Shown piece after piece: positions 22,293-47,023 of a stretch of 64,000 bases of DNA (position 1 is the first letter of the stretch; each line of letters opens with the position of its first letter). The notes below the pieces were generated by a model. That model saw only the letters and a program-made list of their open reading frames with translations. It ran no database searches and had not been told where the DNA came from. The stretch is from contig JBFYLP010000005.1 in assembly GCA_041305345.1 (NCBI GenBank), positions 109,817-173,816 on the forward strand, in the 5' to 3' direction. Source of the stretch: Candidatus Micrarchaeota archaeon. GTDB taxonomy: Archaea; Micrarchaeota; Micrarchaeia; Norongarragalinales; SBBD01. Position numbers and translations under genes: made by a program.

Positions 22293-22645
22293 GGGCTTGT
22301 AGGTGCGCCTGCTTGCAGCCGCATCAAAGAAGCTCAGCCTGGTCTAGAGCGCCAACGAACCTTTTTTTCCCGAAAGAAAAAAGCCCTCCATAAAAAAAGA
22401 AGGGGCTTTTTTGCGGTTTGGAAAATCAAAGGTTCGGCGTTCGTCTTATACGACGACGGAACACGTTTTCGTTCGACTAGGAGAACTGGATGTCCCGGGT
22501 TCAAATGACTTGCTTTGCCTTATAAAAAGGCAAAGTGGTGCACCGCAATGGTTTTTTTGCAAATCAAAGCCGTTCCTTGGCGCGCGGGGCAATCGCACCT
22601 TTCATTAAAAGGAAGGGGCAAGGCGTGAAAATCCCGGCAGGCCCA
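22293..22645 (+). tRNA. tRNA-Ile(UAU) with four introns (about 9/10, 29/30, 37/38, 59/60)
   Basis: Exons 22293-22301, 22332-22354, 22443-22450, 22484-22505 and 22632-22645 join to 76 nt: GGGCTTG TA GCTC AGCCTGGTCTA GAGC G CCAGT CT TAT AA ACTGG ATGTC CCGGG TTCAAAT CCCGG CAGGCCC A. BHB-like motifs at the junctions; the first junction is the weakest. Confidence 0.85.
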
Positions 22646-22730
22646 TCTGCTTCTTTTTTTGAAAGGATGCCCCACATCGAACAGCTAATCCTATTAAAAA
22701 ATCTTTTTACTCATTAATAGGGTGGTAAAA

Positions 22731-23867
22731 ATGGCGCTTGAAGGTGAGAAGATGAAATTGGTTGCAGCTGTGGTCGTGGTAATTGCAGTAATTGCATTGG
22801 TTTTCGCTTATGCCAATGGCAATAATGAGGCTCCCTCGGGAGCAGTCGGGCAGGCTTATGAGGCAGGGAACTCGACGCCGACCCCTACGCCAACAACTGG
22901 AAGCATTCAGGCATCAACCTACCCCCAAGGAGCGACGATACGCCTTGATGGATTGAAAAAGGGCATCACGCCAAGGACGATCACGGGCGTAAACCCGGGC
23001 ACGCACACGATTGAATTTGTGAAGACCCAGTACGTGACCCACTCCCAACCGGTGATCGTGACCAGCGGGCAGACAACCTATGTCAGCGTCAACCTCACCC
23101 ACGTAAACCAAACCGGGAAAATCTACGCAACATCCACACCCAGGAGGGCAAGGGTATATGTAGATGGCATTTCCAAGGGCCTAACCCCAATTACCATCCA
23201 ATACCTGATGCCTGGAATCCACTCCGTGAAATTCACCTATTCCGGCTATCCGGATTACCTAACGACCGCAACGGTTTATGCAATGCAGACAACAAACGTA
23301 TATGCGAACATGTCATCACCAAATCCAAGCCCTTCTCCCTCGCCTATTCCAAGCCCCTCTCCTTCTCCTAGCCCTTCGCCAACGCCAATTCCAAACAACT
23401 GCTCCGATACCGATGGCGGCTTCAACGTGAACCTTATGGGAACTGCTTACGGCTATCAAGGCGGGGCCCCATATTCCTACACGGATAACTGCCATTCAAC
23501 CAGCCTTCTGGACGAATACTACTGCGCGGGATCATCGCTATACAACACCACATACAACTGCAATGCAAACGGGACTGCAACTTGCATCAGCGGCAGGTGT
23601 GTGCCAAATCCAAGCCCTTCGCCAATACCTAGCCCATCGCCTTCCCCCATGCCAAACAGCTGCAATGACTCCGATGGAGGATTCTACCTGTTCACGCAAG
23701 GAACAGCCAGTGGCATCTTTGGCAACGCCCCATACTCCTACACCGACTTCTGCCCGGACAATGCCACGCTATTGGAGTATTATTGCGGGGGCACGCTCGC
23801 ATACAATTACACGACGAGCTGCATGGTGAACACGTCCACGGCCTGTATTGATGGAAGATGCGTCTGA
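22731..23867 (+). CDS. Secreted PEGA-domain protein with Ser/Pro linkers and two Cys-rich CxDxDGG modules
   Basis: N-terminal TM; two STP.GA.(I/V).(L/V)DG..KG.TP PEGA-like repeats; (SP)n tracts; CSDTDGG and CNDSDGG modules. Confidence 0.8.
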   Translation: MALEGEKMKLVAAVVVVIAVIALVFAYANGNNEAPSGAVGQAYEAGNSTPTPTPTTGSIQASTYPQGATIRLDGLKKGITPRTITGVNPGTHTIEFVKTQYVTHSQPVIVTSGQTTYVSVNLTHVNQTGKIYATSTPRRARVYVDGISKGLTPITIQYLMPGIHSVKFTYSGYPDYLTTATVYAMQTTNVYANMSSPNPSPSPSPIPSPSPSPSPSPTPIPNNCSDTDGGFNVNLMGTAYGYQGGAPYSYTDNCHSTSLLDEYYCAGSSLYNTTYNCNANGTATCISGRCVPNPSPSPIPSPSPSPMPNSCNDSDGGFYLFTQGTASGIFGNAPYSYTDFCPDNATLLEYYCGGTLAYNYTTSCMVNTSTACIDGRCV

Positions 23868-23953
23868 TTTTTTTCTTTTTTTCCTTTTTTTCTTTCCGCA
23901 CCCTAATTTGAAAAAGCTTAATAACGGGCCGAAATTAACCCGTATGAACCTAT

Positions 23954-24400
23954 ATGCCAGACTTCCTTACGGTAATGGTTTCCATTTTCGTTGCCGCAAT
24001 GCTAATTGGCGCTGGCTACTATGCTTACAAAACATATGGGATGCCGGACGTGGCAAAACTTGCAAATTCCTCCGCTTATGGAAATCCTTCACCTATTGTG
24101 ACAAAAAAATCCCTGCCAACAAGCACCATCCAGAATTATGTCACGCCAACGCGCTCCTTCTCTTCCCCAACGCCAAGGCCGCCTGCGGTCCAAAAAAGCT
24201 GCACCGATTCGGATTCGCATAACACCTCATCCAAAGGCTATGTTACGGGAGTTGCAGCAAGCGGGAGCTACAAGACGTGGGATTATTGCTTCGATTACCA
24301 CACGGTAATGGAGCAGTATTGCGACGAGAATTCCTCAAGGGAAATTGGCTACTCGTGCAAGTTCACCTCACAGACCTGCGCGGATGGGAGGTGCGCGTAA
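23954..24400 (+). CDS. Membrane-anchored protein with one Cys-rich CxDxD module
   Basis: N-terminal TM, S/T/P linker, CTDSD...KGYV...DYC...EQYC...C...CADGRC. Confidence 0.7.
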   Translation: MPDFLTVMVSIFVAAMLIGAGYYAYKTYGMPDVAKLANSSAYGNPSPIVTKKSLPTSTIQNYVTPTRSFSSPTPRPPAVQKSCTDSDSHNTSSKGYVTGVAASGSYKTWDYCFDYHTVMEQYCDENSSREIGYSCKFTSQTCADGRCA

Positions 24401-24462
24401 AATAGAACTTTTTTAAATCCCGCTAGCGTCCATATTCACAACCACTTTTGCAGGTGATCCGA

Positions 24463-24705: not shown

Positions 24706-24706
24706 T

Positions 24707-28476: not shown

Positions 28477-31400
28477 CTAGTTGCCATTTAAATTACGCGC
28501 CTGCTTGCAGGCAAGAAAGTAATGGTAAAGCATATGCATTACCTGATCGGTCGCATCTATCGGGGGCACATATTCTGCCATAGGTGTTGGGCTGGGGCTC
28601 GTTTTTGGCGAATCGTAGGAGGGGCACCAATTCCGCTCATTCGATACGGCAACTTTAACGGCACTTTCGGGCAGGGGCTTTATCGCAACGAAGGTGTCAT
28701 CCGCAGCAGCGGGTTTTTCCACTAGCTTGCCTTCATCCAACCAGCACCGGGATGAAAAAATCGTCCCGTCGGGCTTTTCAAGCGCAAGGCATATGTTCTT
28801 GCCCTCGAAGAGCTTTCTTTGGATGAATAATTCGGTTTCCTTGTCGCCAATGTCTTCCGGCTCGGATTTCGTGCCGGTGCAATCCTTGTTGTCGCATACC
28901 CTGGCTTTTGTCCCGGGGGGCAATTTTGACAGGTCCAGCTGGGCGTTCACGCAAACCTTATCCTTCGTTGCCGTAAATTCATCCTCTTCAGAGCCTTTAT
29001 CCACCGGCAGGCATTTATCAGTATTCTCAGTGCTGACCGGGGTTAGGCTGATGCGCTGTATTGCCTCTTCTGCCAGGGCCGTGCCTTCCATCGACGCCCC
29101 AAAAATTTCCGTTGATTGGTTCTTGGGCTGGTTCTTCACGCCGTATTCGTCCGGCTTGAATGTGAACAGCCAGTAGGCGTCATCCTGGTATTTTGAAATG
29201 TCCCACATCCCCACGGGTTTTCCATCGTGGGTCAGATCAAATTGCGCGCCCTCCCTCAGAAGGTATTTCAGTGCTGCCTTGAAAGCCTCCTCGCTGATGT
29301 CCGAAAAGTCGGCGGAGGAAACGGTGTCCTTTATTTTGCAGTTTTCGGGAGTGGCCATCACGAATGGGATTTGGACATCGCACGCTGAGAATGTTTTCAC
29401 TGACACGAATGTGAGCTCCTTGTTTGCAGGATCAAGCATTACGAATGAAAACGGCTCGAGCATGTTGAAATCATTTACCTTGTCGAGCTTTATCCCCATA
29501 TCAGCACAGCTGTTTTCAATGCCGGTGTAATCGAGAAGCAGGCCGCGGTCATCCAGCCAATCAGGCGGCTGCTTCAGGCCGATGTTGCAGCTCTTGATCT
29601 TGATGTCCCTATTTCCACCAGTTCCCTTAAGGGCACCGAAGGATTCGTCATATATTTTCAGCTTGTCCTGGGTTAGGTCCGTGCTGAACGCATACTTGTT
29701 CATCGTGTAAAGCGTCGGGAGACCGGGTGCATCCTGCTTCACAATCACGGGGTTCTCCAGGTAATGGTATATTGGCGCATTGTTGGAGTTGTCAAGGGAA
29801 ACTGCAATGAAGCGGTCCTTTGGCTGGGGTTTGAGCTTCTCGGATACTTCATTCTTGTTCTTGGAAAGCGCCTTTTGGAGTCCCGCATCAACTGATTCGG
29901 AGGAAAGCGCCTGGTCAAGGGTGAAGAAACCTCCGGAGCTGCTTGAGCCCTGCTCTTCCGTGAGGGCGCTAAAGCTCTTTAGCACGTAGCCCGCGGTCTT
30001 CGCGGAAGCATCCGTCTTGAAGAGGACCGAAACCTCGAGCCCCCTCGTGTCCACTATTGGCTTTGCGTATTGCACGCGCGGCTGGAAGGGGAAGCCCTTT
30101 TGCATCATCCGGTTCATCATCGCCTGCTTGATCGCGCCGAAATTGTTCGTTGCTGCAAGCGCCTCGAAAGTGTTGAGGAATTCCGAGTCGCAAACTGAGG
30201 CATCGAGCATATCCTTCTCAACTGCCCAAAGCTCAGAGCCCGTGACCGTCTGGTCGCAGTAAGCGCCCTCGACGCAGTTATAATCATAGCTGCTCGAAAC
30301 CGACTGCTTGCAAAAGCCGTCGGTCAAAGCCTCGACACCCTTGCAAAGCTCGTATTGCGCCTTGTCTGCAATGTAATCCTGCAAAGTGAGCGCAGCTGCT
30401 TCGGCGATCCTTTCAAGCGCATAGTCGCCAAAGCCCGCAAAATCGAGTTTCTGTATGCGGATGTCCTCGTGGGCCTCCTCGATGTCCTTTGCAACCTCCT
30501 CTGCAGCTTCCTGAAGATCCTTTTCCGAGCAGAAATTATTGCCGCTGCATTGAAGCCCGCCATCGCCTTCGGAGCCCGGATTGCCAATCACGTCGTATGC
30601 GCCATCCGAATCCAGGGTTGTTGGCGAGGGAAGCGCAAGTGGGAAAGGGTCCTCGTCGCGGATCCTCCTTAAATCAAACGTCCGTTCCGTTCCCAGTTTT
30701 AAATTCTGTTCAAAATAATAGAGCTTGTAGAAATCGTCATTTCCCCTGCAGAGTTTGTTTGGGTTTGCTTGATTGCACAGGTCGCCGTTATCAGGAACAT
30801 CAACTAGCTTGCTGCCGGGGATGTTGTTCACCAGATAGAAAGGCTCGACGGCGTCCGTGCCTTCATCGTTCCTTGCGGTTATTTGGGAGGAAACGGGCAC
30901 CGACTGCAGCACGTATTTCCCGATCCCCTCGTTATGGATGATGAATTCAAATTCGATTGAGAACTCCTGCCCGGTTGGCACGAACTTCATAACTATCCGC
31001 TGTTTCTTCGTTTCCTTACCGTCATCGAAGAGGAGCCTGCCTTCCGTTGAGCCCGCTTCCCCGGAGAACTCGTATTTCATCTTCCTCGGATCGTTCGTGA
31101 AAATGAAGGTGGTATAGCGGGGAGCAATGCCGATGATGCTGTTTAGGTCCTGCAATGCGCCGATGATCTTCCCGTCTGGGCCGTTCTTGTCCGCATAGTA
31201 GCCTGCAAGGTATTTGAGTTCTTCGCCGGTGTCGTACAATTGGATGTTCGAGGCGGAGCCGTATGCAAGCGCATAATCATTGATGATCGAGAATGCGGCG
31301 CCGTTGATTGGCAGGAAAGGCGAGAGGTGGACCTTGCAGCTAAAGCCCGCGCCGTTCCCAACGACTTCGCAAATCCCCGGGTCATCCGCAGTTTGGAGGG

Positions 31401-34400
31401 AGGAATACGGCCCCATCTGCAGCTGGTTTTGCTGGTAATACTGCATATTCTGCGAAGCTGCCGGGTTCCAGCTGTTCGTGAAGCCGTTGAAATTCTGGCC
31501 GTAAACCGCAGGCTGCGCAAGCCCGGGGCTTTTAACTGCCTGGATGCCGTTGGTATAAACGTAGAATTTGTAAAAGCTGCTGTATGCTACCTGCTTTGAT
31601 TTTCCCGCCTGGGGCTCGAGCTGGCCGATTAGTCCCTTCGTGAGATGGCCAACGAACCTTTGCGCAAAGTAGTTGTTGTTCTTGTACTTGCAAATCGCAT
31701 CCACATTCCCAACGTACACGATGCCCTTCATCGAATTTTCGCCCATATCCCGGTAATTGTAAATGCCGCTCCTGGTGAATTGGAAGGAATACGTCTTCCC
31801 GGGCTGGATCGAACCCGACTTGAAGGGTACGCCGGAGGGCGATTTGTAGCCCGAAATCGATTGCAGCTGGTGCGCCTTTGAATCCTGGTTGACCCACGTG
31901 ACCTTTGCATTCTCGGGGATCGAAACTGCGGGCGGTTCGAAACCATAGCTGGTGATCACAACGATGGTTCCATTCGTATCCGTTGTCTGCGAAGCGCCGG
32001 GCTTGACAGCTGGCCCTGTGATCACGACTCGGACGCTAAGTTGGGGCTTGTTCGAAAAAGTGATGTAAAGCCTTCCGGTTTGAACAACCGCCCTTTTATT
32101 GGTATCGAGCGTGGCATCCGTGCTTGTTGCAGCTTCCGTTTCGGGAGTGCACGCATCAACTGTGCAGCCAAGAGTTTCCTCAAGCTGCTCGCACGCCTCC
32201 TTCTGTGCAAGGGTGCCAACTTCCGGGCACCTTTGCCTGACGGTGCCGTCTGATTTGTAGTATGTCTTGCCGGTGCTAGCTGTTTTGCTAACGACAACGT
32301 AGCCGCCATCGGTGCAGGAATAAATGGTTTCGACATTCGCATCCCCGCACCTTGAGGAGGGGTCTGCTGCAAACGAAAGCGTTCTCAATTCCGGCCCGCT
32401 GAAGGATAAGGAGCTTGCCTCCTTCCCGCCAAAATTCAAATTGTCAAGATCAGCATAAATGACTCCCTTGTAATACGGATGGCCCGAATAATCCGCCAAA
32501 ACCACAAGGACGCTTGGGTCCGTGGAGCAGTCGAGATTCACGTAATTTTCCATCTTTGCATTCTCATCGGTTTCGGGGCTCCTTATGGTGCAGCCTGTGA
32601 TCGTGCTCCCCCGGGTTATTTCCTGCAGCGAATAATAACCGTTGAACTGCAAAGCCTCATCGAGCTCGAGCGTAAGCGTATCCGTTGGAAGGGCGCCGTA
32701 GGGGGTTGCAGTTGGCGTTAGTTCAATCTTCTTGCAGATGTTCTCAACGCAGGCCATCCCCGCATCGCACTGCGAATCAAGCGTGCAGAATTTTGGCAGG
32801 GCGCAATTGATCTTCACCGGGATCTTGATGTTTGCGTGGCTGCCTCCTGCGGCCTCGCCATCGATGCTAAGGTCGCACGCGCTTCCCTGCCTTGTTGGCG
32901 TAAGCACGAGGCTTTTCTTTTTCTTCGCGCCAAGGGTGAATGCAGCGCCGGTTCCGGATGCTATGGTGTTGACGCCATCGCCTATCAGGGTTATGCAGTT
33001 GGACTGTGCGAGTACGTTGATCTCCGCATTCAGCAGGTTCTCGACATCAAGGGTGCTGCCGTCGCACGAAAGCAGTATCGATTGCGAGCTTGCTGAAAGG
33101 AACTCGGTTAGCGAGACCGCAACCTCCTTCTTTGCATTGCGGAACCCTTCGCGTTTTGCAATGACGGTGAACCTTCCGGTGTTAAGCGGATGCAGCCTTC
33201 GGAACTCGTACACCCCATCAGCGCCCTCCTTTTCCGATCCGTCACCGACGATGGAATCGGGGACCATTCCATCGAATGCGGCGCTTTCGTCCTCCTCTAT
33301 TGTGATTGTGGCATCCGTGATCGCACTTTCATCAAGTGCGTTCTGCAGGAGCACGCGCAGGCTGGAATCATCATTCGCCTGCATCTGCAGGGGCGCAACC
33401 TGCATAAGGAAATCGTTTGTGCCAGTAACCTGCACTGACGATTTCAATGAGATGTATTGGGAATCCGCATCTCCAAAAATAAGCTCCATTCTCGAGTATG
33501 CAGTTGAAAGTAACCCAAGGAGCTCGATCTCGCCCGAAATGGTGCTGCCTTCCTCGAGGCTTTCGAGCTGCCACGTCCATTCCTTCCTCCCTTCCGCATT
33601 CCCGCTGCTGCTTCCGAGCCTGAATGCGCCAAAGGAGAGTTCGCTATCGTCGGTGAGCTTGAGGAACGGTGAGTTTTCATAGCGCTTCAAGGCGCGGAGG
33701 GAGAAATATGCCTTGAAGGGAACGCCTACGTCAACTGCAAAGCCCTTGGAAACCCTTGGCAGGTTGGCTTCCCCGAACTGCAGCGAAAGGCACGCTTTGT
33801 CGTTGCATATGAACCGGTCCTCCGAGATGCGGAAGGAAACGGCATCCGATTCGGCGTAGCACGAATCCCACTCATCGGTCCGCTCCGCAGTGCCTAGGGC
33901 GGCATCCTCCGGAACGCGGGTGAAAATACTCCCGCTTGACGCATAACCGCGATAGTTTATGGAGATCTCGTCGTTTTGCTTTGCCGTAGGCTTGATGAAA
34001 ATCTTAAGCACAACCGCCTTCGTATTTTGCTGCTTTGGAAATTCGTATTGCACCCATTTTGCCATTTTGGCGCTCCCATCGACATCAGAGGACTTGTCGG
34101 ATTTGCAGCTTTGGGAAGGATTGTACGAGAAGCCCTTCGTGACAGCGGAGTTCGCAGGCTTGTCATAATAGGATATTGCCGCAATGTCCTCCTCGGCTGT
34201 CTTTGAATCGCTTCCGCCAACCCTTATGAACATCCCGCCCATTTCGCTTCCAGCTGGTATGTTGAGGACGAATTTCGCATAATAGTACGAGCCCTTGGAA
34301 AGGGATGGAAAATCGCGGGCGTATGTGCCGCCCTCGGTCGATGCAAGGCCCTCAAAGTTGACCGACAGTTCGTTCTTCAATGCCGCGGGTATGAGCTTCA

Positions 34401-36252
34401 CTTCGATTTTCTTCTCGGATTGGGGTTCGACGAAAAGGTCCTCGGTTTCATATTCGAGGTAATTCTGCGATGAGATCTTGAGGTACACCTGCTTGTTTGC
34501 GGGCACCTTAATGCTGCAAGAACCGCTTGAGAAGGCGCACTCGCCATCGGGGATAGCAAGCCCATCCGACCTCAGGAACGCCTTTGCCCCTCCTGCGGGA
34601 ATGGTTTTCTGGTTAGTGGCATCCCTAAGGGAAACAATAAGCGTGCCCATCGGCCTTGCCAGCTTTACAACCACCTCATTTGCATCCCCTACCTCGGGGA
34701 TGAAGGATGAAGATGCGCCGCTTACGCAGTCCTTGCTTGCCGTGACGTAGTACTTGGCTTGGCCGCCAAAGAGCAATGTTGGCACGTTCGAAAATGCGGT
34801 TGTGCCATCTTCGATCGTCAGCTGGTCCTTAAGCCCTAGGAAGAAGCCATCTTCCGTGAAGATGTTTACCTTTGCTGCCTGGGTGAGCTCGCCATCGGAG
34901 TCGAGCACAGTTACCTTGATCCTTGCGGAATTGTCATCCCTTGCATTTTCGAGCTCGATGGAATAGGACTCTCCCATCTGGCCGTCGAGCAAAAGGTTTG
35001 GGAGATACCCATCCTTGTAAGCGCTTATGTACACGATCTTGTCCGTGGTAAATGTTGTTTGGCCCTGGCCATCCGTAGTATTGGAGGCAAGGAGCGCATT
35101 CGTTTCCTGGTTGTACATTCTCACGGCCGCAGCTTCAAGGTTGCTGCCGCCAACTTCCTTCACAGTTATCGTTACCCCGTAGTCGCGGCCGACATCCTTC
35201 TCTTCCAGTTGCAGCTGAAATTCCAATGCGGTTCCGGAAAGTAGGATTTGGGATCCCTCGCTGTCATCCAAGGGGAGGTACGCCTCATCAATGGGATTCG
35301 CAACAACATAAACGCGCTGGCCTACTGCATCGATGTCCGTGAAAAGCACCTTTCCCGACAGATATGTTCTGCCGGAATCAAGAAGCTCGTCATTGCCCGC
35401 AAGGAATAGGCTTACGGTTGCGTCAACGGGATTCCCATCGGTGTCCTTGATGGAAACGAGCACCTCTCCCTTTAAGGGCGCGACCTCGCCGCCCTCGTCA
35501 ACAGGAACCTGCGATTTTTTTGAAAGCGTGACCTGCTTGCTTTTTTCAACCGAAACAACCAGCCTTACCTGCGATGCAACGTAGTTGCTTTTCTCGATTG
35601 TCACGCTCAGCTCGGAATCCAGGTTTGCCGCGGTAAGCAACGCTAGCCCGGACGCATCGGTCACTGCCTGGTCGTAAAGCCCGTTCTCGGAATCGAAATA
35701 TGAAACTGAAGCGCCGCCAAGGGGCACTCCGCTTGCGTCCGCGACCTTGATGGTTACTTTCACCTTCTGGCTTATGCTAGCCCCCCCGGACTGGAGCGCT
35801 GCCGTTATCTCCGGCGTTTCCTTGCTTACAATGAATTCCTTCTCGAATTTCTGCAATCCCGGCTGCTCCGCAACCACCCTTGCGGATTTCCCAACAGGCA
35901 CCTTTTCGAATACCGCCCTTCCCTCGTCATCCGACTCGATGGAACCGAATTCGTTCCCGTCTATTTCCAAAATCACAAGAACGCCGGAAAGCGGATCGCC
36001 ATTTTGCAGCACGGTTATGCCAAGGGACGTTGTGCCTTGGAAGAAAATCCCAAGAGCAAAATATGCGCCAACTGCAATCCCAAGGAGGAGCAGGAGGAAA
36101 ATTGGCAGGGAGGGGACGCCGCGGCTTTCAATTGGGGTGATGAACCAGTCGTAAACGGGCAGCTTTAGCTGCTGCTGGAGGAAATCGCAAAAACCATAGT
36201 AGGAATCCTCAATTTGCCCATAAAGCCCCCTGTCAGTGCCAGTGCTTGCCAT
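28477..36252 (-). CDS. Giant membrane-anchored surface protein 1 (carboxypeptidase-regulatory/Ig-like repeats, cupredoxin-like domain)
   Basis: ~2590-aa ORF; N-terminal TM; repeated V...G.PL.GA.V / TD..G.A beta-sandwiches; GFEP..V.I......WVN.D...H cupredoxin-like segment. Confidence 0.85.
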   Translation of the reverse strand: MASTGTDRGLYGQIEDSYYGFCDFLQQQLKLPVYDWFITPIESRGVPSLPIFLLLLLGIAVGAYFALGIFFQGTTSLGITVLQNGDPLSGVLVILEIDGNEFGSIESDDEGRAVFEKVPVGKSARVVAEQPGLQKFEKEFIVSKETPEITAALQSGGASISQKVKVTIKVADASGVPLGGASVSYFDSENGLYDQAVTDASGLALLTAANLDSELSVTIEKSNYVASQVRLVVSVEKSKQVTLSKKSQVPVDEGGEVAPLKGEVLVSIKDTDGNPVDATVSLFLAGNDELLDSGRTYLSGKVLFTDIDAVGQRVYVVANPIDEAYLPLDDSEGSQILLSGTALEFQLQLEEKDVGRDYGVTITVKEVGGSNLEAAAVRMYNQETNALLASNTTDGQGQTTFTTDKIVYISAYKDGYLPNLLLDGQMGESYSIELENARDDNSARIKVTVLDSDGELTQAAKVNIFTEDGFFLGLKDQLTIEDGTTAFSNVPTLLFGGQAKYYVTASKDCVSGASSSFIPEVGDANEVVVKLARPMGTLIVSLRDATNQKTIPAGGAKAFLRSDGLAIPDGECAFSSGSCSIKVPANKQVYLKISSQNYLEYETEDLFVEPQSEKKIEVKLIPAALKNELSVNFEGLASTEGGTYARDFPSLSKGSYYYAKFVLNIPAGSEMGGMFIRVGGSDSKTAEEDIAAISYYDKPANSAVTKGFSYNPSQSCKSDKSSDVDGSAKMAKWVQYEFPKQQNTKAVVLKIFIKPTAKQNDEISINYRGYASSGSIFTRVPEDAALGTAERTDEWDSCYAESDAVSFRISEDRFICNDKACLSLQFGEANLPRVSKGFAVDVGVPFKAYFSLRALKRYENSPFLKLTDDSELSFGAFRLGSSSGNAEGRKEWTWQLESLEEGSTISGEIELLGLLSTAYSRMELIFGDADSQYISLKSSVQVTGTNDFLMQVAPLQMQANDDSSLRVLLQNALDESAITDATITIEEDESAAFDGMVPDSIVGDGSEKEGADGVYEFRRLHPLNTGRFTVIAKREGFRNAKKEVAVSLTEFLSASSQSILLSCDGSTLDVENLLNAEINVLAQSNCITLIGDGVNTIASGTGAAFTLGAKKKKSLVLTPTRQGSACDLSIDGEAAGGSHANIKIPVKINCALPKFCTLDSQCDAGMACVENICKKIELTPTATPYGALPTDTLTLELDEALQFNGYYSLQEITRGSTITGCTIRSPETDENAKMENYVNLDCSTDPSVLVVLADYSGHPYYKGVIYADLDNLNFGGKEASSLSFSGPELRTLSFAADPSSRCGDANVETIYSCTDGGYVVVSKTASTGKTYYKSDGTVRQRCPEVGTLAQKEACEQLEETLGCTVDACTPETEAATSTDATLDTNKRAVVQTGRLYITFSNKPQLSVRVVITGPAVKPGASQTTDTNGTIVVITSYGFEPPAVSIPENAKVTWVNQDSKAHQLQSISGYKSPSGVPFKSGSIQPGKTYSFQFTRSGIYNYRDMGENSMKGIVYVGNVDAICKYKNNNYFAQRFVGHLTKGLIGQLEPQAGKSKQVAYSSFYKFYVYTNGIQAVKSPGLAQPAVYGQNFNGFTNSWNPAASQNMQYYQQNQLQMGPYSSLQTADDPGICEVVGNGAGFSCKVHLSPFLPINGAAFSIINDYALAYGSASNIQLYDTGEELKYLAGYYADKNGPDGKIIGALQDLNSIIGIAPRYTTFIFTNDPRKMKYEFSGEAGSTEGRLLFDDGKETKKQRIVMKFVPTGQEFSIEFEFIIHNEGIGKYVLQSVPVSSQITARNDEGTDAVEPFYLVNNIPGSKLVDVPDNGDLCNQANPNKLCRGNDDFYKLYYFEQNLKLGTERTFDLRRIRDEDPFPLALPSPTTLDSDGAYDVIGNPGSEGDGGLQCSGNNFCSEKDLQEAAEEVAKDIEEAHEDIRIQKLDFAGFGDYALERIAEAAALTLQDYIADKAQYELCKGVEALTDGFCKQSVSSSYDYNCVEGAYCDQTVTGSELWAVEKDMLDASVCDSEFLNTFEALAATNNFGAIKQAMMNRMMQKGFPFQPRVQYAKPIVDTRGLEVSVLFKTDASAKTAGYVLKSFSALTEEQGSSSSGGFFTLDQALSSESVDAGLQKALSKNKNEVSEKLKPQPKDRFIAVSLDNSNNAPIYHYLENPVIVKQDAPGLPTLYTMNKYAFSTDLTQDKLKIYDESFGALKGTGGNRDIKIKSCNIGLKQPPDWLDDRGLLLDYTGIENSCADMGIKLDKVNDFNMLEPFSFVMLDPANKELTFVSVKTFSACDVQIPFVMATPENCKIKDTVSSADFSDISEEAFKAALKYLLREGAQFDLTHDGKPVGMWDISKYQDDAYWLFTFKPDEYGVKNQPKNQSTEIFGASMEGTALAEEAIQRISLTPVSTENTDKCLPVDKGSEEDEFTATKDKVCVNAQLDLSKLPPGTKARVCDNKDCTGTKSEPEDIGDKETELFIQRKLFEGKNICLALEKPDGTIFSSRCWLDEGKLVEKPAAADDTFVAIKPLPESAVKVAVSNERNWCPSYDSPKTSPSPTPMAEYVPPIDATDQVMHMLYHYFLACKQARNLNGN

Positions 36253-36374
36253 CAGCTTCACCGTTTAAAACGTATCCTCGAAGGAATAAAAACATACCTT
36301 TTGCATCAATGCACGTTGTGGCCGGTTGCCAAATACCCTTTTTAATTCCATTTCCCAAACCCTAATTGATCCCG

Positions 36375-36719: not shown

Positions 36720-36741
36720 TTTGAAGGGGGGATGATGCGCT

Positions 36742-40218: not shown

Positions 40219-43200
40219 TCAATTTCTGATTATCCTGCAGACGACTTTGGGACTTCCATTTAGCGGTTTTCCATCGCGGTAAAGCTGCGCATAAATATTG
40301 GAGCAATCGTCAACATCCTCATTGTCCCAATATGCTACCTCGATGTTTTCAAATGGGAGGGATCGGAAAACGCCCCCGATATCGTTTTCTCCAATTCCCA
40401 GCTCGGATTTGGGCTTAATATTTTCACTGCAAAAGGTGGCGACGCCATAATGCTTTAAATTCGCATAAATCGTGCCGCCGTTGGCACCGATTATTTTTTT
40501 AATGTCTGATTTTGATGGGTCCGACATCCAAATCCTAAATTTCACTCCGCCACCTAATAGCCAGGATCTCGGGCTTACCTCACAATTTGCAACGGCCCAC
40601 GCCTCCGATGAATCGGTTGTTTGGGAAGATTGCAGCGCCAGTATCACAATGCCCCTGAATCCGTCGTTTTCTAGGATGCCACGCCATTTTTTCTCGATCT
40701 TCATTTGTTCGCCAATCTGCTTTACCTCGTCGGTCACGACCAGGCCGAATAATCCATCCCCGTCGGGCATCTTCACTTTGGCATCGGAAGGCAGTTGGTT
40801 CTCGAAAAATTCGATGGGAGCAACGGATAGCGAATTTTCTGATGCAGAACCCGCAACTTCCCGGCCATTGGCCTTGACACCGACCTTCGTGAACTTCAGC
40901 CCGAGCTTATGCTTGACGGTCACGTCAGCATTGCCATCCAGCCGGACTTCCAACTTGAATTCCTCGCTTGGCGAAGCGCTCACCTGCCCCTCCACGCGCC
41001 CCTCGTTCCCTTCGGGGTATTCGCCGGAAATGCAAATGTTGCTTATATCATACTTCAGGTCAGTTGATTTGGCTATTTCAACAATGATGGTTTTATCCTC
41101 CCCTCCGAGAAGCGTTTTGCAGGCGGTTTTTTTTGCCTCCTTTGCAGCAGCGGATTGGGCGGGCTCGTCGCCTGATTCAGTTGGTCTCGATTCATCCGGA
41201 AGCTGGCGATCCGCACCTTTGGTGAAAACATTCAACTCCAGCTCCGCTAGCTTCCTTTTCTCGAATGCGGCTTTTTCCCCCTCTTCTGGAACGCTGTAGA
41301 GGCTTATTGTCAGCAGGTCAATGATCTCATCCGGTTCAGATTCCTTTTCCGAAGTGCCCCGTTCCTTGAGCAGCTCTTCGTAATCAGCATCAATATGAAG
41401 GCCTTTTTCGTTGAAAACGCACTTAAGGAATTCGGTTTGCTTGGTTTGGGGGAATGTTGACGATTCGATTTCACAAAGGTATGCCTTCCCATCATCCGGA
41501 GTGATGATCTTGCCCGCATAAGGAACATCATAAGCCAGTTTCCGCTTCCCTGCCTCGCTAGGAATTTCCTGCTCATTGTTTTTCCTAAAGGATGCGGAGT
41601 GCAGCGTGGAGGAATGCGTACGCAGGATTCCATCGCAGCTAAGCTTCCCTCCCATTGGGAGGGGAATTTCAACCGATGATGAATCCTTGTTGTCTTCAGG
41701 AATTAGCAATGCGGGGTTATTCCCGTCTGGCTTGAATTTCCCGTTTTCCACCTCAATTGGAATGCCAACAACGCCTCCAAGACCGCCAAGTTCGGAAACC
41801 TTTGCCTCATCAGCGCTGCCCCAGCTGGAAAGCTTGCAATTTTCCGTGAGGACATCATCCGTCTGCTTGAATTTTGCAGCAGCAGGACCATTCCCATCGG
41901 TCAGGACAAATTGGAGGTTTTTTGAGAGGGGCTCGAGGTCGTACTCTTTCTTGGAGCCCAGTTGCAATGCCAATGGCAGGAGCTTTGTCAGGCCTACCGA
42001 GGGGTAATGGAGGATTGCATACAACTCCCCTTCCTTGTTTAGCGTTCCGTCCTTTTTCCCTGATGGCGCCGCGGCCTTGCCCAAATCAACTTCGTAGTCA
42101 AGGATTACGCCATTTTGGGATTGGGAGCATTTCTTCACATTCACGGCATTTTGCAGCTTGCTTGAGGGAGAACTCCCGAAATTTTGGGCGGATGGCGCGC
42201 CCGTGCGGTAGTTCGTCATCGACTGGAGCTGGCTGAAATAAGCCGGATCAGAGCCAAGCTTGCAGTTCATTGCGCTTGGCATTTGCGTTTGGGAAATAAA
42301 CGAGATTTCGTGGTGCACAAACCTCTTGAAAGTGAATGGGTCCACCTCTGCGCCCGCTTCGGGAAGCACCTCGTTTTGCATCGTGAACGTGGTTGCCGTG
42401 CTTTGCCTTGGAACCGTTGCGCCTTCCGCAATGATCCGGATTTTCACGCTCCTTGTCCCTCCCGACTGGAACCTCACGAGCAGCGAGCCCTCCACGTAGC
42501 CTGCATTGCACGCAGCTGCATTGAATCTGGAATCGTAAGTTGATGTGCCATATTGCTGCGAAACGGAAATTCCCTGCCCCAGGTTGGATTGGGTGGCTGC
42601 GATTTGCGGATAGGAAAAGGCGGATACGCCCATCTGCGGGTAGCTTGAGTAATCGACATACCCCTGCGCGTATTGCGGCAATGGGTAGTAGCCATTCCCG
42701 TTGATATTCACCTGCGAGTAGCCCCCGTCATAATATTGGCCTGAAGTGCCGAGGTTGGAATTGCCATAGCCCGCATTCTCAAAGTAGTAATAGCACGCGG
42801 GGTTGCTTGAATATATCCTTTGGAGGAGCTTGTTGTACGTGTCGTATCCTGAGAAATCCGCAAGCACGTGGACCCGCTGCTCAAGAGGGCCGCAGATGTC
42901 AGCTGTTATGCCATAATCAATTCCCTGGACCTCGCATCCATCAACAAGGCCGCCTAAATTCCCAAGGGAATAATAATTGTCGAACCTGCGGGTGTTGGGG
43001 TTGAGAGTGAAGACTATGGGATCCGGAAGGGGCGGGAGCTCCCTGTAATAGATGGGCTGAGCGGATGCAATTGCACCTGCAGTGGGCGATGCGTCGATGA
43101 TTGGCGCATCAGGCGCGGTTACGATGACCGTAAAAGTCCTGGTGAGTTGGCCTGTTGTGCGGACGATGACGCTCCCTTTCTGCCGGAACGAACGGTCGAT

Positions 43201-46200
43201 TGTTTCGGAGGAATAATCGGCGGAAATGTGCACCATATCCTTGTTGCACTCGGCGGCAACGTTGAAATCATCACTTCCGCGGATGTCGCAGAAAGCAACT
43301 TCCCCGATGCCGGAGGTGGAAAAGAACTTGTCGGCAAAACCGTTCTCATCAAGTGCAAGGTTCACAATAGAGGGCATCACCGGAAGCGCGGGGTTGCCAA
43401 TCGCCTGAACTTCGGGCGAGGTCACATCAATCCTGACGGGGATTGCAATGCGCACCGACTCCTTTTGCGAAAGCGCGTTTTCAAATATCAATTGGCAGTT
43501 TGACGCGACCGTAATGTTTGGAAGCACGCCCACCTGCACCTCTATGGAATCCTTGAAGTTCGCAACCGAATTCGGGAATGCATAAAGCACAGGCGAAGTT
43601 GCGCTCCCGCAATTTGAGATTACTAGAAGAGTCCCCTTCGCGTCATCCAATGTCGAGGCTACCTCCACCGATTGCTCCAAAAGCCCGCTCGAATCGCCCT
43701 TGAACGTAAGGCTCGAAGGCACCGTTTTTAGGGAATCTTCGGGAGTTTCAACATTGATGATGCACCCGTCATACCGCTTGAATTCGGGATGGTCGACACG
43801 GATCCCAATTTTCCCGGAGGAGATGGCAGAAAGGTCAAATGAATAGATGCCACCTTCGCCCTCGCCCTTATCACCGTTTCCGGAAAGGAGCAACTCGTCG
43901 CCGCCAAGGGGGCTGCGCTCGCAATCGTAAAGGGTGATGATCGCATCGGGAACAGCCACGCCCTGCTCATCAAACACCGATGCCCTAATCTTCCTTTGCT
44001 CCCCTGCAATGATTTTGAGCGGGGTTGCTGCAACCTTAAGGAGGTTCTGGCCGGATATTTTGACATTTTGGTGGAACGTGAATGAGCGCGCCTCCGACTT
44101 GAATTTCAGCTGCAGGTCGGTGGTGCCTGCGCGGATCGCCTTCATCCGTAGGGTGCCTGGAGTGCGCAGGTTCACCGGTATTTCAACGGCAATGCCCTGC
44201 TCCTTACCGGAAGTAATTGCTATAGGTTCATCCGCAAGGTCGGTCCCTGCTGTTGCCTCGAGCAGCTTGACGTTGCCGCTTTGCACTGCAATTGTGCTGA
44301 TCCGTTCAGTTGAAAGCACCTCGAATTGGATGTTGAAGTCGGATCCAAGCAGGATCTCATCCTCAAGACGGAATTTCCTGCAGAAGCTTGAATCCGCTGC
44401 GCAGATCAGGGGCGATGAGGTTACTCGCTGCTCAAAGACCGAATTCCCAAAGCTGCAGGCGCGTTTTACAAGGTCGAATGGCGTAAGCAGGGGTTCAGCC
44501 TCAAGTTGCTCCTCGGATGGGCTGGTAAAGATGATTCCGTTCTTTTGCGCGTAAGATTTGAAGTTGAGCGCAAACGACGAATCTGCAGGCGCAGTTGCAT
44601 CAACGCGGATCTTGGCAACTACCTGCTTCGCGCCTGTTGTGCCTTTTGGGAATATTAGGTCAAGAGATGTGATCTTTCCCTTTGCATCCTCATCCAAGTA
44701 GCAACCTTCCTTCGAATATTTTGATGAGGTATATACGGATTGGCCGGCAAAGTCCCATTCGCCAATTTCCACGAAGCCCGATGGGGAAGTGAGATGCAAG
44801 TGGAAGCCGGCAACATCAGCAGATAGCGGGAATCCCACAAGGAATTTGGCATCGTATGTTTCGCCGTTGCCAGCTTCCGTAATGGCTTCCCCTCTCTGGT
44901 TGGTCAGGCCCACGAATGCAACGGTTACGCTGCTTGCATCAGCTTGGGAAATCAGCTGCAATGCAACCTTCCGGAACTCGGATGGGGAAAGTGAAAGGGG
45001 CGCGGAAGTGGTCACAAGGTACTGCGGCGATTGGGCCCTTAGCGTGATTTCGGAATTTGCCGGCAGCTCCTCGAGCACGCATTTCCCTGCGGTTAGTTCA
45101 CAGCTTGCAAGCATCACTCCCCCCTCATCCAATGCTTCGATCCTTCCGGATGGGACCTGCTGCTTCTTTAGCGCATCAGTTAGGGAAATTTCAATGGATG
45201 CGGGATTGCCAACAAGCGTGATTTCGATTGCCTCATCGAATCCCGAGGTGATCATTGCGCTTTCGCCTGCGCTTGCATCCTTCACGGCCTTTGCATAAAA
45301 TTTGTAGGCCGCGCCGCTTATTTCACTTGGAAGGGAAAATACGGCACGCCCCTCGTGGTCCGTGTATTTCGGCGGTATTCCAAGGAACGATCCATCTTCC
45401 TTAAAAATGGAAATTTCCGCGCGTTCGGCGCCGTCGCCTTCCTCGATTGCGGTAATTTCCAAATCGAAGGAGTTCTCCTCGGTTTCCCTCGTAAGTTCCA
45501 ATGTGCGCCGCGAGCTTGATGCGCCTGCGATGAAGGATGCGGGCAGGAAGCCTTGCGAGTATGCCGTAAGGTAGAACTCCTCGTCCTTCGAAACAAGCAT
45601 CGTGGCCTTCCCATCCCCAACCGTTTGCACCTTGCCAAGATGCTTGCCTTCCAAATCAAAACGGTTGATGACAGCCCCACCCAGGGCGGCGCCATCACCT
45701 GTCACGAGAAGGTCGATGTAATCGCCAGTTAGTTTCTCCTCGAGGAAAACTGAAAGCTCCAACACGTCACCTGATGAGGAAAGCCTGAATGGGTTGGAGC
45801 TCGAGCCGAGGTATTTCGCGCTTTCTGAAACCTCCACAACCAATTCCCTTCCGATAAGGACGCCCTCGAAAAGCACGGCGCCATCCCCGTCGCTCCTTGC
45901 GCTCTTAAGCAAACGGAAGGTCGATGCATCCTTGAGGGAAACAAGAATATCCGAGAGCTGAGTATCTGATGCAGAGGTGAGTGAAATGCTAATGTCGCCA
46001 ATTTCTGGCACCTGTTCCTTGGAGGAATCGTCCGTGCGATCTGATTCAAGTGAAACGCTAATCGAGCCCGCCTCGATGTCACGCGCCCTAATGTCCTTCG
46101 CATATTCCTCGAAATCATCTGCAATAACCCTAAGGGTCGCGTGTTCCGGCACGTTTTCGAATGAGAATGTGGCAACCCCGGAGAAATCCGATGTTAGCGT

Positions 46201-46734
46201 TTCCGCGCTGCCATCGTCAAGAATTAGCCTCACTTCCGCCTCCCGCACGTACTGGTTGGCGGTGTCGGAAACCCATACTGCAAATTGCGTGATCTGCGCC
46301 TCCCCGCCCTGCACCTGCGTGAGGCTTATTTCCGTGGCCGAGAAGCTGATGCTCTCTTCTATTTCCGCATAAACGCCATTCGGATCCGTCACCTTCGCCT
46401 TCAAATCCGAATCCAATGGGACCTCCTTGAAGGTCGCCTTCCCATCAAAATCCGTCTCGGTTTTGCCAATTGGGCTATCCTTGTCATAAAGCCTAACTTC
46501 CATCCTAGGAAGCGGGTTGCCCTCGGAATTTTTGATCAGGAGCGTTAGGGAATCCGTGCGCTTCACAACCGAGGGTAATGAGAAATACGCGCCCGCAAGC
46601 AGAAGAGCAATAAGCAGCACCGGAAGGATGGCACGCGGCGAAGGAACCCCTTTTTCCTCGAGGCTTGCCATCAGCCCTTCATACTGCTCCTTTAGGTTTT
46701 CGATGAAGGATGGCTGCGAATCCTGCGCGCTCAT
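40219..46734 (-). CDS. Giant membrane-anchored surface protein 2 (paralog of 28477-36252)
   Basis: 2171 aa; EEKGVPSP+TM; Ig-like repeats; shared AYSQGFLP and DGSFLG motifs. Confidence 0.85.
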   Translation of the reverse strand: MSAQDSQPSFIENLKEQYEGLMASLEEKGVPSPRAILPVLLIALLLAGAYFSLPSVVKRTDSLTLLIKNSEGNPLPRMEVRLYDKDSPIGKTETDFDGKATFKEVPLDSDLKAKVTDPNGVYAEIEESISFSATEISLTQVQGGEAQITQFAVWVSDTANQYVREAEVRLILDDGSAETLTSDFSGVATFSFENVPEHATLRVIADDFEEYAKDIRARDIEAGSISVSLESDRTDDSSKEQVPEIGDISISLTSASDTQLSDILVSLKDASTFRLLKSARSDGDGAVLFEGVLIGRELVVEVSESAKYLGSSSNPFRLSSSGDVLELSVFLEEKLTGDYIDLLVTGDGAALGGAVINRFDLEGKHLGKVQTVGDGKATMLVSKDEEFYLTAYSQGFLPASFIAGASSSRRTLELTRETEENSFDLEITAIEEGDGAERAEISIFKEDGSFLGIPPKYTDHEGRAVFSLPSEISGAAYKFYAKAVKDASAGESAMITSGFDEAIEITLVGNPASIEISLTDALKKQQVPSGRIEALDEGGVMLASCELTAGKCVLEELPANSEITLRAQSPQYLVTTSAPLSLSPSEFRKVALQLISQADASSVTVAFVGLTNQRGEAITEAGNGETYDAKFLVGFPLSADVAGFHLHLTSPSGFVEIGEWDFAGQSVYTSSKYSKEGCYLDEDAKGKITSLDLIFPKGTTGAKQVVAKIRVDATAPADSSFALNFKSYAQKNGIIFTSPSEEQLEAEPLLTPFDLVKRACSFGNSVFEQRVTSSPLICAADSSFCRKFRLEDEILLGSDFNIQFEVLSTERISTIAVQSGNVKLLEATAGTDLADEPIAITSGKEQGIAVEIPVNLRTPGTLRMKAIRAGTTDLQLKFKSEARSFTFHQNVKISGQNLLKVAATPLKIIAGEQRKIRASVFDEQGVAVPDAIITLYDCERSPLGGDELLLSGNGDKGEGEGGIYSFDLSAISSGKIGIRVDHPEFKRYDGCIINVETPEDSLKTVPSSLTFKGDSSGLLEQSVEVASTLDDAKGTLLVISNCGSATSPVLYAFPNSVANFKDSIEVQVGVLPNITVASNCQLIFENALSQKESVRIAIPVRIDVTSPEVQAIGNPALPVMPSIVNLALDENGFADKFFSTSGIGEVAFCDIRGSDDFNVAAECNKDMVHISADYSSETIDRSFRQKGSVIVRTTGQLTRTFTVIVTAPDAPIIDASPTAGAIASAQPIYYRELPPLPDPIVFTLNPNTRRFDNYYSLGNLGGLVDGCEVQGIDYGITADICGPLEQRVHVLADFSGYDTYNKLLQRIYSSNPACYYYFENAGYGNSNLGTSGQYYDGGYSQVNINGNGYYPLPQYAQGYVDYSSYPQMGVSAFSYPQIAATQSNLGQGISVSQQYGTSTYDSRFNAAACNAGYVEGSLLVRFQSGGTRSVKIRIIAEGATVPRQSTATTFTMQNEVLPEAGAEVDPFTFKRFVHHEISFISQTQMPSAMNCKLGSDPAYFSQLQSMTNYRTGAPSAQNFGSSPSSKLQNAVNVKKCSQSQNGVILDYEVDLGKAAAPSGKKDGTLNKEGELYAILHYPSVGLTKLLPLALQLGSKKEYDLEPLSKNLQFVLTDGNGPAAAKFKQTDDVLTENCKLSSWGSADEAKVSELGGLGGVVGIPIEVENGKFKPDGNNPALLIPEDNKDSSSVEIPLPMGGKLSCDGILRTHSSTLHSASFRKNNEQEIPSEAGKRKLAYDVPYAGKIITPDDGKAYLCEIESSTFPQTKQTEFLKCVFNEKGLHIDADYEELLKERGTSEKESEPDEIIDLLTISLYSVPEEGEKAAFEKRKLAELELNVFTKGADRQLPDESRPTESGDEPAQSAAAKEAKKTACKTLLGGEDKTIIVEIAKSTDLKYDISNICISGEYPEGNEGRVEGQVSASPSEEFKLEVRLDGNADVTVKHKLGLKFTKVGVKANGREVAGSASENSLSVAPIEFFENQLPSDAKVKMPDGDGLFGLVVTDEVKQIGEQMKIEKKWRGILENDGFRGIVILALQSSQTTDSSEAWAVANCEVSPRSWLLGGGVKFRIWMSDPSKSDIKKIIGANGGTIYANLKHYGVATFCSENIKPKSELGIGENDIGGVFRSLPFENIEVAYWDNEDVDDCSNIYAQLYRDGKPLNGSPKVVCRIIRN

Positions 46735-46790
46735 GTTAATACAGATGAATAAAATCGTTTAAAAGGATGCTCATTTCTATCTAACCTGAC

Positions 46791-47023
46791 AGCCCCGTCG
46801 TCTAGCGGTCAAACCTAATTCTTTCCCAATCGTAAAGGAAAGGATTTTGGGAACACGGATAGAGGCCTCTGGAATTGCAATTCGCAATTGAGAAAGCCTT
46901 TGACGGCAGTTCGAAATGCCTTGCCTTTCTTATCAGAAAAGAAAGGCGATGGCGCCGCGAAAGAAAACAATTTAGCGGCTCCGCCAAATTCATCGGCAAG
47001 GCACGAACATCTGCCCGGGGCTA
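46791..47023 (+). tRNA. tRNA-Gln(CUG) with three introns (21/22, 37/38, 59/60)
   Basis: Exons 46791-46812, 46857-46872, 46895-46915 and 47010-47023 give 73 nt: AGCCCCG TC GTCT AGCGGTCAA GGAT A GAGGC CT CTG GA GCCTT TGAC GGCAG TTCGAAT CTGCC CGGGGCT A. Perfect BHB at 59/60; TTTAAAA box upstream and T-run downstream. Confidence 0.92.

Follow-up and report, generated by a model that had tools for sequence, protein, structure and literature searches.

Two intron-rich tRNA genes in a Micrarchaeota contig

The stretch analyzed here (64 kb of contig JBFYLP010000005.1, called the window) is DNA of a micrarchaeote, an archaeon of the DPANN group. It carries a tRNA-Ile gene and a tRNA-Gln gene, whose introns at position 59/60 are the subject of this report. 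On the unspliced 64-kb window, neither ARAGORN nor Rfam (gathering and E-value thresholds) detected a tRNA. The two genes were read by eye, spliced by hand and then checked with ARAGORN, which returned perfect cloverleafs for a tRNA-Ile(tat) of 76 nt and a tRNA-Gln(ctg) of 73 nt. Since standard finders miss these genes entirely, the tRNA complements and completeness estimates of such DPANN genomes are probably too low, a statement based on the window's two genes. A T-arm/acceptor scan of the window gave no tRNA beyond these two, and a candidate at 55481-55615 (minus strand) was rejected after its sequence had been read. A KaiC-like protein encoded at 20951-21649 (minus strand) is 94% identical to one in the metagenome-assembled genome (MAG) JAZDKC01, and four further Micrarchaeota/Norongarragalinales MAGs encode versions with 83-89% identity to it. 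Loci in related genomes are given as L-numbers (L019, L020 and so on); all of these relatives are MAGs or metagenome contigs.

The tRNA-Ile(UAU) gene (22293-22645, plus strand) has four introns and a 76-nt mature sequence, GGGCTTGTAGCTCAGCCTGGTCTAGAGCGCCAGTCTTATAAACTGGATGTCCCGGGTTCAAATCCCGGCAGGCCCA; its exons are identical in the orthologues of relatives. A short intron lies at 9/10 (22303-22332), or at 10/11 because of a one-G boundary ambiguity, and its removal is required for the cloverleaf. In relatives, the same site holds an element of a second intron family, family B. The 29/30 intron (22355-22442, 88 nt) belongs to family B by nhmmer profile and pairwise z score, and the canonical 37/38 intron (22451-22483) is 33 nt long. 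The 59/60 intron (22506-22631, 126 nt) was assigned by a covariance model, R1, and by pairwise z scores to the family that concerns us most, family A, as a degenerate full-length copy. The tRNA-Gln(CUG) gene (46791-47023, plus strand) has three introns: a 44-nt D-loop intron with a relaxed bulge-helix-bulge (BHB) motif (46813-46856), matched by introns at the same place in the relatives L162 and L168; a canonical 37/38 intron of 22 nt (46873-46894), placed by splicing and ARAGORN; and a 94-nt 59/60 intron (46916-47009), a short form of family A with a perfect hBHBh' motif. The original prediction had placed the two introns exactly there, at position 59/60 of tRNA-Ile(TAT) and tRNA-Gln(CTG), and both are present.

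The exon side of the BHB motif at 59/60 consists of the T stem and T54-R57, and the intron must end in the complement YGAA plus two bases. A generic BHB enumerator gave too many candidates for use alone. The Gln junctions form a perfect hBHBh' motif (4/4/4) with 3-nt bulges, GGCAG / TTCG / aaa / TGCCTTGCC ... GGCAAGGCA / CGAA / cat / CTGCC. Its central helix pairs TTCG (46910-46913) with CGAA (47004-47007), and the closing helix of the intron, P1, pairs TGCCTTGCC (46917-46925) with GGCAAGGCA (46995-47003) over 9 bp. The Ile junctions form a relaxed BHB motif with a 4-bp central helix, TTCA (22500-22503) and TGAA (22626-22629), and bulges AAT/AAT of 3 nt each (22504-22506 and 22630-22632). Here P1 pairs CTTGC (22509-22513) with GCAAG (22618-22622), and the inner helix contains one A.G mismatch and an extra G. 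Within the 64-kb window, no gene for EndA or RtcB was found; an epsilon2 splicing endonuclease is known from another Micrarchaeota lineage (PMC3239211).

Further observations concern the tRNA-Ile gene. The only Ile tRNA seen has the anticodon UAU (anticodon loop CTTATA, window 22443-22450). A UAU tRNA-Ile reading AUA is unusual in Archaea, where an agmatidine-modified CAU is the usual solution; it is known from Nanoarchaeota and Korarchaeota. The window gene has four introns and its orthologue in MAG JACRGC01 (L019; minus strand, about 5334-5738 in reverse-complement coordinates) has five, at 9/10, 29/30, 37/38, 53/54 and 59/60. A 2014 review gives three as the maximum known per tRNA (PMC4033280). 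Upstream of the gene, GGGCCTG at 22266-22272 forms a second complement to the 3' acceptor strand, 27 nt before the true 5' end GGGCTTG (22293-22299) and directly 3' of a TATA-like ATAAATAAA. The arrangement GGGCCTK...ATGAAAGTTC...GGGCTTGTA is kept in L020, L021, L022, L023 and L227. This GGGCCTG could be a relic of a duplicated 5' exon (compare L255, below) or a leader or promoter element.

Relationship and fold of the 59/60 introns

The original prediction held that the two 59/60 introns are homologous on account of a closing stem, a first hairpin and a tgg.gc..ccgc segment. These three shared features are real; they correspond to P1, to hairpin P2 and to the 5' strand of helix P3, and they are not forced by the T loop. 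The likeness of the 3' ends (gtgaaaa / acgaaca) does not count in the same way, as the rule for 59/60 intron ends enforces it. Intermediates connect the two introns. In the orthologous tRNA-Ile of MAG JBDRLB01 (L020), the 59/60 intron is 185 nt long; it matches the Ile intron of the window with a z score of 13.9, and its first 50 nt match the window's Gln intron with a z score of 13.3. The Ile intron also matches a tRNA-Trp intron (L243; z 18.4). The closest relative of the Gln intron is the 59/60 intron of a tRNA-Asn(GTT) in MAG JBBSVW01 (L218:649-728, minus strand), with 70/81 positions identical (86%; z 26).

The covariance model R1 was built from six near-full-length introns of other genomes and tRNAs (Asn, Trp, Leu, Ile and others), with no window sequence included. 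The seed introns are 70-98% identical to one another, and the model has 130 positions and 48 pairs. Over the whole window with filters off, the two 59/60 introns were its top two matches: the Ile intron scored 54.8 bits (rough E value, 1.4e-12) with a full-length match at 22508-22624, and the Gln intron scored 26.8 bits (rough E value, 4.3e-5). The family-B intron at Ile 29/30 was matched weakly (22.1 bits), and the best match elsewhere in the window reached 12.7 bits. Reverse-strand echoes were seen at the same loci, because the model consists mostly of helices. Searched against 100 DPANN tRNA-Gln loci (687 kb), R1 gave 0 matches at E <= 0.1, and on 13 loci with unrelated tRNA-Gln 59/60 introns, with filters off, it gave at most 16.3 bits. 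Together, the intermediates, the profile and these controls show, at the level of sequence, that the Ile and Gln 59/60 introns share common ancestry, as had been predicted. An exon-anchored scan also found tRNA-Gln 59/60 introns in other DPANN genomes; their sequences are unrelated to the window introns and they were set aside.

Family-A elements are 80-280 nt long, and a full-length copy of about 130 nt folds into four helices. P1 (consensus GCCTTGC / GCAAGGC) closes the element. Within it lie a U/A-rich hairpin, P2 (UUUUCUUUU-loop-AAAAGAAAA); the long helix P3, in which GCG-GUGGC-GCCGC-AAAAGAAA pairs with UUUCUUU-..-GCGG-A-GCCAU-CGC around a small hairpin (UUGAUUCGCRAAUCA); and hairpin P4 (CCUUUCUUU-loop-AAAGAAAGG). 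A 3' core of 54 nt, TTTCTTTGGCGCGGAGCCATCGCACC-TTTCTTT..AAAGAAA-GGGGCAAGGC, is almost invariant in all copies, and P2 and P4 may bear extra hairpins, which brings some copies to about 280 nt. The window's Ile copy retains all four helices with many substitutions. The Gln and tRNA-Asn copies are a short form that keeps both ends, P1, P2 and P3 but has lost the inner hairpin P3b, part of P3, and P4.

Pairing was evaluated in 32 non-redundant copies aligned to R1. Canonical pairs filled 83-96% of cells, against 43-83% when the partner column was slid by one, and compensatory double changes occurred in 8/8 P2, 4/9 P4, 3/7 P1 and 4/19 P3 pairs. Compared with shuffles, the minimum free energy of the Gln intron had a z score of -4.4 and that of the Ile intron -1.5. 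These figures bear only in part on the suggestion that the introns may be a stable functional RNA: compensatory changes accompany the conservation of the fold, and the Gln intron is a much better folder than its shuffles, the Ile intron less so. No Rfam family matched family A, which has no C (RUGAUGA) or D (CUGA) boxes and no match at threshold to C/D small RNA (sRNA) models. A K-turn or C/D-box reading of the 54-nt core was dropped, as the motifs are absent. A group I, group II or homing-endonuclease intron was likewise rejected, given a length of 80-280 nt, no open reading frame (ORF) and no Rfam match. As a separate observation, the tRNA-Trp(CCA) gene of L243 and L250, which carries family A at 59/60, has a canonical intron of 135 nt (about 4700-4830, minus strand, in L243) with repeated TGATGA and a weak C/D-box sRNA match (sR1, 16.5 bits). 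This canonical intron resembles the known sRNA-bearing tRNA-Trp intron of Euryarchaeota.

Distribution of the two intron families

Two pattern scans yielded about 40 further family-A copies, all on Micrarchaeota-type contigs; the number of unrelated bacterial matches was close to chance expectation, and viral contigs gave no match to the element. Family A was found in at least 12 tRNA species, at four positions (D-loop, 29/30, 37/38 and 59/60) and in both orientations. Brute-force splicing combined with ARAGORN proved noisy as a host check and was replaced by manual splices. Exact splicing and ARAGORN confirmed tRNA-Trp(CCA) and tRNA-Ala(TGC) as hosts at 59/60 and tRNA-Gly(TCC) and tRNA-Glu(TTC) at 37/38. 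The hosts Asn, Gln(TTG), Leu(GAG), Leu(TAA), Pro, a CAT tRNA, Gly(CCC), Ile at 29/30 and the tRNA with the antisense copy in L255 were identified by reading only.

Sense copies at 59/60 occur in tRNA-Ile(UAU) (window, L020, L022 and L227), tRNA-Gln(CUG) (window), tRNA-Gln(UUG) and tRNA-Asn(GUU) (L218 and L239), tRNA-Trp(CCA) (L243 and L250), tRNA-Leu(GAG) (L214 and L261), tRNA-Pro (L203, L241 and L256), a CAU tRNA (L253) and tRNA-Gly(CCC) (L233). The 29/30 site of tRNA-Ile is occupied in L022 and L227, and the 37/38 site in tRNA-Gly(UCC) (L244), tRNA-Glu(UUC) (L247) and tRNA-Leu(UAA) (L260). One copy lies within a larger intron of a CAU tRNA (L242). In antisense orientation, the 59/60 intron consists of a full-length copy in the tRNA-Ala(UGC) of L261 and of a core copy in the L255 tRNA, and the 5' half of the element lies in the D-loop intron of a tRNA-Gly in L203. 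A putative tRNA-Thr with an antisense core (L237) has an aberrant T-loop and was left out of the counts. In JBBSVW01, a core variant private to this genome, GCCGTTCGC, recurs in the copies of three different tRNAs, which is what spread within a genome would produce. The predicted movement between tRNA genes is supported by the range of tRNA species and positions, by the location of the Gln intron's nearest relative in a tRNA-Asn, and by the differing intron sets of tRNA-Ile.

Among eight orthologous tRNA-Ile genes, the 76-nt mature sequence is the same or almost so, but the number of introns ranges from two to five. The 37/38 intron is kept in all eight, at 33-45 nt, and the other sites vary. 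The window gene has a short intron at 9/10, B at 29/30, none at 53/54 and A at 59/60. L227, its closest relative, has B at 9/10, A at 29/30, none at 53/54 and an A core at 59/60. Family B occupies 9/10, 29/30 and 53/54 in both L019 and L021; the 59/60 site holds a short intron of 23 nt in L019 and none in L021, whose entry was corrected by reading. Both L023 and L024 have no intron at 53/54 and 59/60 and a short one at 29/30 (46 and 32 nt, respectively); at 9/10, L023 has B and L024 none. L020 and L022 have short inserts at 9/10 and A at 59/60, and L022 also has A at 29/30. The tRNA-Gln(CUG) genes at L162 and L168, which belong to the genomes of L019 and L022, have no 59/60 intron; these genomes are closer relatives of the window than the genome with the tRNA-Asn copy. 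Intron presence thus varies at orthologous sites of close relatives.

Family B was identified by an nhmmer profile of nine introns from other genomes, which matched 22360-22438 of the window at an E value of 3e-10. The Ile 29/30 intron gave pairwise z scores of 3.7-17 against introns at 9/10, 29/30, 53/54 and the D-loop elsewhere. The family has the motif GAACCTTTTTCTTTC..GAAAGAAAAAGCCCTCCGGAAAAGAAAG.. and occurs in relatives at 9/10, 29/30 and 53/54 of tRNA-Ile and in the D-loop of a tRNA-Pro; further copies were found in L230, L255 and L214. Judged by these matches, family B is a second, independent transposed intron family in the same tRNA-Ile gene.

Family-A copies also occur outside introns. 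Core-only or 5'-shortened copies directly follow complete tRNA genes and are themselves followed by a second copy of the tRNA 3' segment (tRNA-Gln in L168/L263, L238, tRNA-Glu in L246, tRNA-Val in L249 and tRNA-Leu in L223). In L255, a copy lies beside a duplicated tRNA 5' end. Another lies at the end of a flavodoxin-like ORF with a perfect 33-nt flanking repeat (L230), and others are in intergenic DNA (L211/L228 and L234). Six loci, this 3' end of a protein-coding ORF among them, have copies between direct repeats of 18-35 nt. The L249 repeat includes the last bases of another intron, and the duplication therefore arose in DNA and not from a mature tRNA. The 3' end of the L230 copy (ATGAAAA) is of the 59/60 type and that of the L234 copy (GCGTAA) of the 29/30 type, indicating that both derive from tRNA introns. 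As far as their sequences go, the cases at tRNA ends fit two readings, long target duplications at insertion or partial allele replacement. L230 fits only an insertion-made target duplication or some template-switching repair; an empty-site orthologue of this insertion was not present among the sequences searched.

Two further observations concern such arrangements. In L234 (minus strand, about 1305-1412), two copies of the first 12 codons of a GTPase gene (MGSLNAGP..) flank an A copy. They differ at eight bases, all but one synonymous and including AGT versus TCC for Ser; because the differences are mostly synonymous, the second copy looks imported from a diverged homologue and not duplicated in place. 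A complete tRNA-Gln with an exact repeat of its last 13 nt, TCTGCCCGGGGCT, lying 72-96 nt downstream was seen in 11 of 17 other DPANN genomes, of Woesearchaeota, Nanoarchaeia and others (L001, L003, L006, L007, L008, L010, L011, L013, L014, L016 and L017). The intervening sequence is hairpin-rich and is not family A: the exon-duplication architecture is the same, with other inserts.

The rest of the window holds features of a different kind. A low-GC island at 4000-8600 (GC content 0.39, against about 0.52 elsewhere in the window) contains a gene for an RHS-repeat protein with a C-terminal Ntox35 toxin domain (5225-6832, minus strand), which is followed by a weakly Imm11-like ORF (6930-7562, minus strand). 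The island looks like a polymorphic toxin/immunity cassette. It adjoins a 2041-amino-acid ORF (8525-14650, minus strand), one of four giant ORFs of 2041-2594 amino acids; the others lie at 28477-36261, 40219-46734 and 47723-53950, all on the minus strand, and the four occupy about 40% of the window. A DUF6577/AbiEii nucleotidyltransferase pair, similar to type IV toxin-antitoxin systems, and a Fic/DOC-domain protein are encoded at 16288-18163 and 19934-20905.

Possible routes of movement and comparison with known systems

The two 59/60 introns probably represent divergent copies of a single family of non-coding mobile elements, family A, found in Norongarragalinales-like Micrarchaeota. The comparisons between genomes show, within what sequence can tell, that the family has many hosts and positions, is gained and lost rapidly, and exists in both orientations and also as extragenic copies. 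In the mechanism that we propose, P1 would serve as the intron-side helix of the BHB motif, and the tRNA splicing endonuclease and ligase of the host would excise the element from the pre-tRNA. An insertion would then be harmless, because P1 supplies the BHB inner helix and the endonuclease removes the element. Position 59/60 would be a hot spot because the exon half of the motif, the T stem and T54-R57 (TTCR), is the same in nearly all tRNAs, so that one intron 3' end (YGRA plus NN) fits any tRNA.

The element may move at the DNA level, with the P1 strands doubling as terminal inverted repeats of 7-9 bp. A flipped copy would start and end with the same bases and still be spliceable, which would explain the functional antisense copies, and such copies favor DNA-level insertion over sense-only reverse splicing. 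The antisense and extragenic copies, which the original prediction did not foresee, suggest an element mobile as DNA rather than plain copying of introns, and the repeat-flanked copies do likewise. We put forward, tentatively and as a minority possibility, a reading of family A as a non-autonomous DNA element: its terminal inverted repeats would double as the BHB inner helix, and it would insert into tRNA genes either way around and be erased from the RNA by the host endonuclease. If so, these BHB introns would be born as "self-hiding" transposons, and the repeat-flanked copies at tRNA ends and at the ORF end would be insertion footprints or abortive products.

Several points weigh against common descent and DNA-level movement as set out here. 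Compared directly, the Ile and Gln introns gave a Smith-Waterman score of 17-18, against 16-16.5 +/- 2.5 for dinucleotide shuffles (z 0.45), which is not significant, and the homology link consequently rests on the intermediates and the profile. The E values of R1 are rough because its calibration was shortened, and the pairing figures lean towards the model because the alignment was fitted to it. The P1 strands, GCCTTGC(C)/(G)GCAAGGC, are such that any closing RNA helix would look alike. No transposase, integrase or reverse transcriptase was found in the 64-kb window; no autonomous partner (a transposase with the same ends) turned up, though no search was aimed at one. Ordinary intronic copies have no clear target-site duplication. 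The arrangement at tRNA ends would also result if an intron-free allele replaced part of an intron-bearing one, with homology on one side only, leaving E1-E2-remnant-E2. That the Ile-Gln resemblance is a product of BHB constraints, T-loop context and A/U-rich composition only is nevertheless extremely improbable. The direct score within the shuffle distribution and the YGAA-NN ends forced by the T-loop agree with it, but it is refuted by the independent profile that matches both introns, by the ceiling of 16.3 bits for unrelated 59/60 introns and by the 86% identity of the Gln intron to a tRNA-Asn intron. Similarity above the expectation from BHB motif and composition, on which the original prediction depended, is thus upheld despite the pairwise result.

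The other explanations accept a family but differ on what moves or why it is kept. A small repeat, either the 54-nt core or the whole unit, could land in pre-existing introns and non-essential DNA, and the Ile-Gln likeness would then reflect two independent landings; we regard this as conceivable but doubtful. It would account for the tRNA-Ile sites 9/10, 29/30 and 37/38, which are occupied in nearly all relatives while their content alone varies (30-97, 32-194 and 33-45 nt, respectively), for the core midway in an intron of about 190 nt and away from the splice site in L242, and for core-only copies in intergenic DNA and at the ORF end. At 59/60, however, the site is empty in the tRNA-Ile of L023, L024 and L026 and in the tRNA-Gln of L162 and L168, so that there the presence of A coincides with the presence of an intron, and P1, in most copies, lies directly at the splice sites and forms the BHB helix itself. 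Primary service as a host-beneficial RNA (e.g., a stable circular sRNA or a protein-binding module), with conservation due to selection and not to recent spread, is unlikely. The 54-nt core hardly varies among genomes whose KaiC-like proteins share only about 70-94% identity with that of the window, and the helices are conserved with compensatory changes, but presence is patchy even among close relatives, truncated, antisense and extragenic copies are common, and the Rfam and C/D-box searches described above came back empty. Movement at the RNA level seems more improbable still: splicing run backwards, or RtcB sealing an intron from elsewhere between two exons, would put an excised intron into a different cleaved BHB site, and a DNA copy of the product would then recombine into the gene. 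Family replacement at the same site fits such swapping, as do the 5'-truncated extragenic copies of L230 and L234 with their intact, tRNA-adapted 3' ends. Sense-only reverse splicing cannot yield the full-length antisense 59/60 introns of tRNA-Ala and the L255 tRNA or the antisense D-loop copy, and the window holds no sign of the reverse transcriptase that this route would use.

The closest precedent is the transposed tRNA introns of Thermoproteales, reportedly described in 2010 by Fujishima, Sugahara, Tomita and Kanai (Mol Biol Evol 27:2233). Family A resembles these introns, as papers citing that study describe them, in its rapid gain within one order and in the multiple introns of many tRNAs. 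As in Thermoproteales, significantly similar introns were found in different tRNAs (Ile, Gln, Asn, Trp, Leu, Pro, Ala, Gly and Glu), and one family occupies different positions (29/30 in L022 and L227; 37/38 in L244, L247 and L260; 59/60 in many; the D-loop in L203). The host here is a DPANN micrarchaeote and not a thermophilic crenarchaeote, and family A is long (80-280 nt), with a defined multi-helix fold and an invariant core. Antisense copies and copies outside introns with 18-35-nt flanking repeats are a further difference from the 2010 study as it is represented in the papers that cite it. Transposition of tRNA introns between tRNAs is a known concept in Thermoproteales (PMC4090602, PMC4033280, PMC10714607), and its mechanism is described in reviews as unknown (PMC4090602). 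A single tRNA here can have four to five introns, against the maximum of three in the 2014 review (PMC4033280).

In the archaeal Richmond Mine acidophilic nanoorganisms (ARMAN)/Micrarchaeum, of the same phylum, non-canonical BHB introns are cleaved by an epsilon2 endonuclease (Fujishima 2011, PMC3239211; Hirata 2012, PMC3488258). The likeness lies in non-canonical positions that need a broad-specificity endonuclease; the subject of those papers is the enzyme and its relaxed motifs and not an intron sequence family or its mobility. Disruption of tRNA genes in Caldiarchaeum, in which a 1.8-kb recombinase-encoding element is implicated (Sugahara 2012, PMC3293823), likewise joins intron gain with stray tRNA fragments (duplicated ends) that are polymorphic between close genomes, whereas the inserts here are non-coding and 54-280 nt long. 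Family A also resembles miniature inverted-repeat transposable elements (MITEs) in being short and non-coding, with putative terminal inverted repeats (the P1 strands), many near-identical copies, internal-deletion derivatives that keep both ends, and insertion in both orientations, the last seen in the antisense copies at 59/60 of tRNA-Ala and the L255 tRNA and in the D-loop intron of L203. A known transposase partner and short target duplications of fixed length are typical of MITEs. In contrast, ordinary copies of family A have no clear duplication, its flanking repeats are 18-35 nt long, and its putative inverted repeat is indistinguishable from the splicing helix.

How archaeal BHB introns are gained has been an open question since transposition was inferred in Thermoproteales. 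The present lineage offers what that case did not have: an easily recognizable long element with a conserved fold and dozens of copies across tRNAs and positions, antisense copies and copies with flanking duplications. It also offers filled and empty orthologous sites in genomes whose neighboring KaiC-like proteins are 83-94% identical, and with such copies and sites DNA insertion, RNA-level swapping and allele replacement become directly testable. No report of transposed tRNA introns in Micrarchaeota was found in the literature searched. Relative to the known systems, what is new here is the phylum, a long structured element with an invariant core, its antisense and repeat-flanked copies, and the four to five introns per tRNA.

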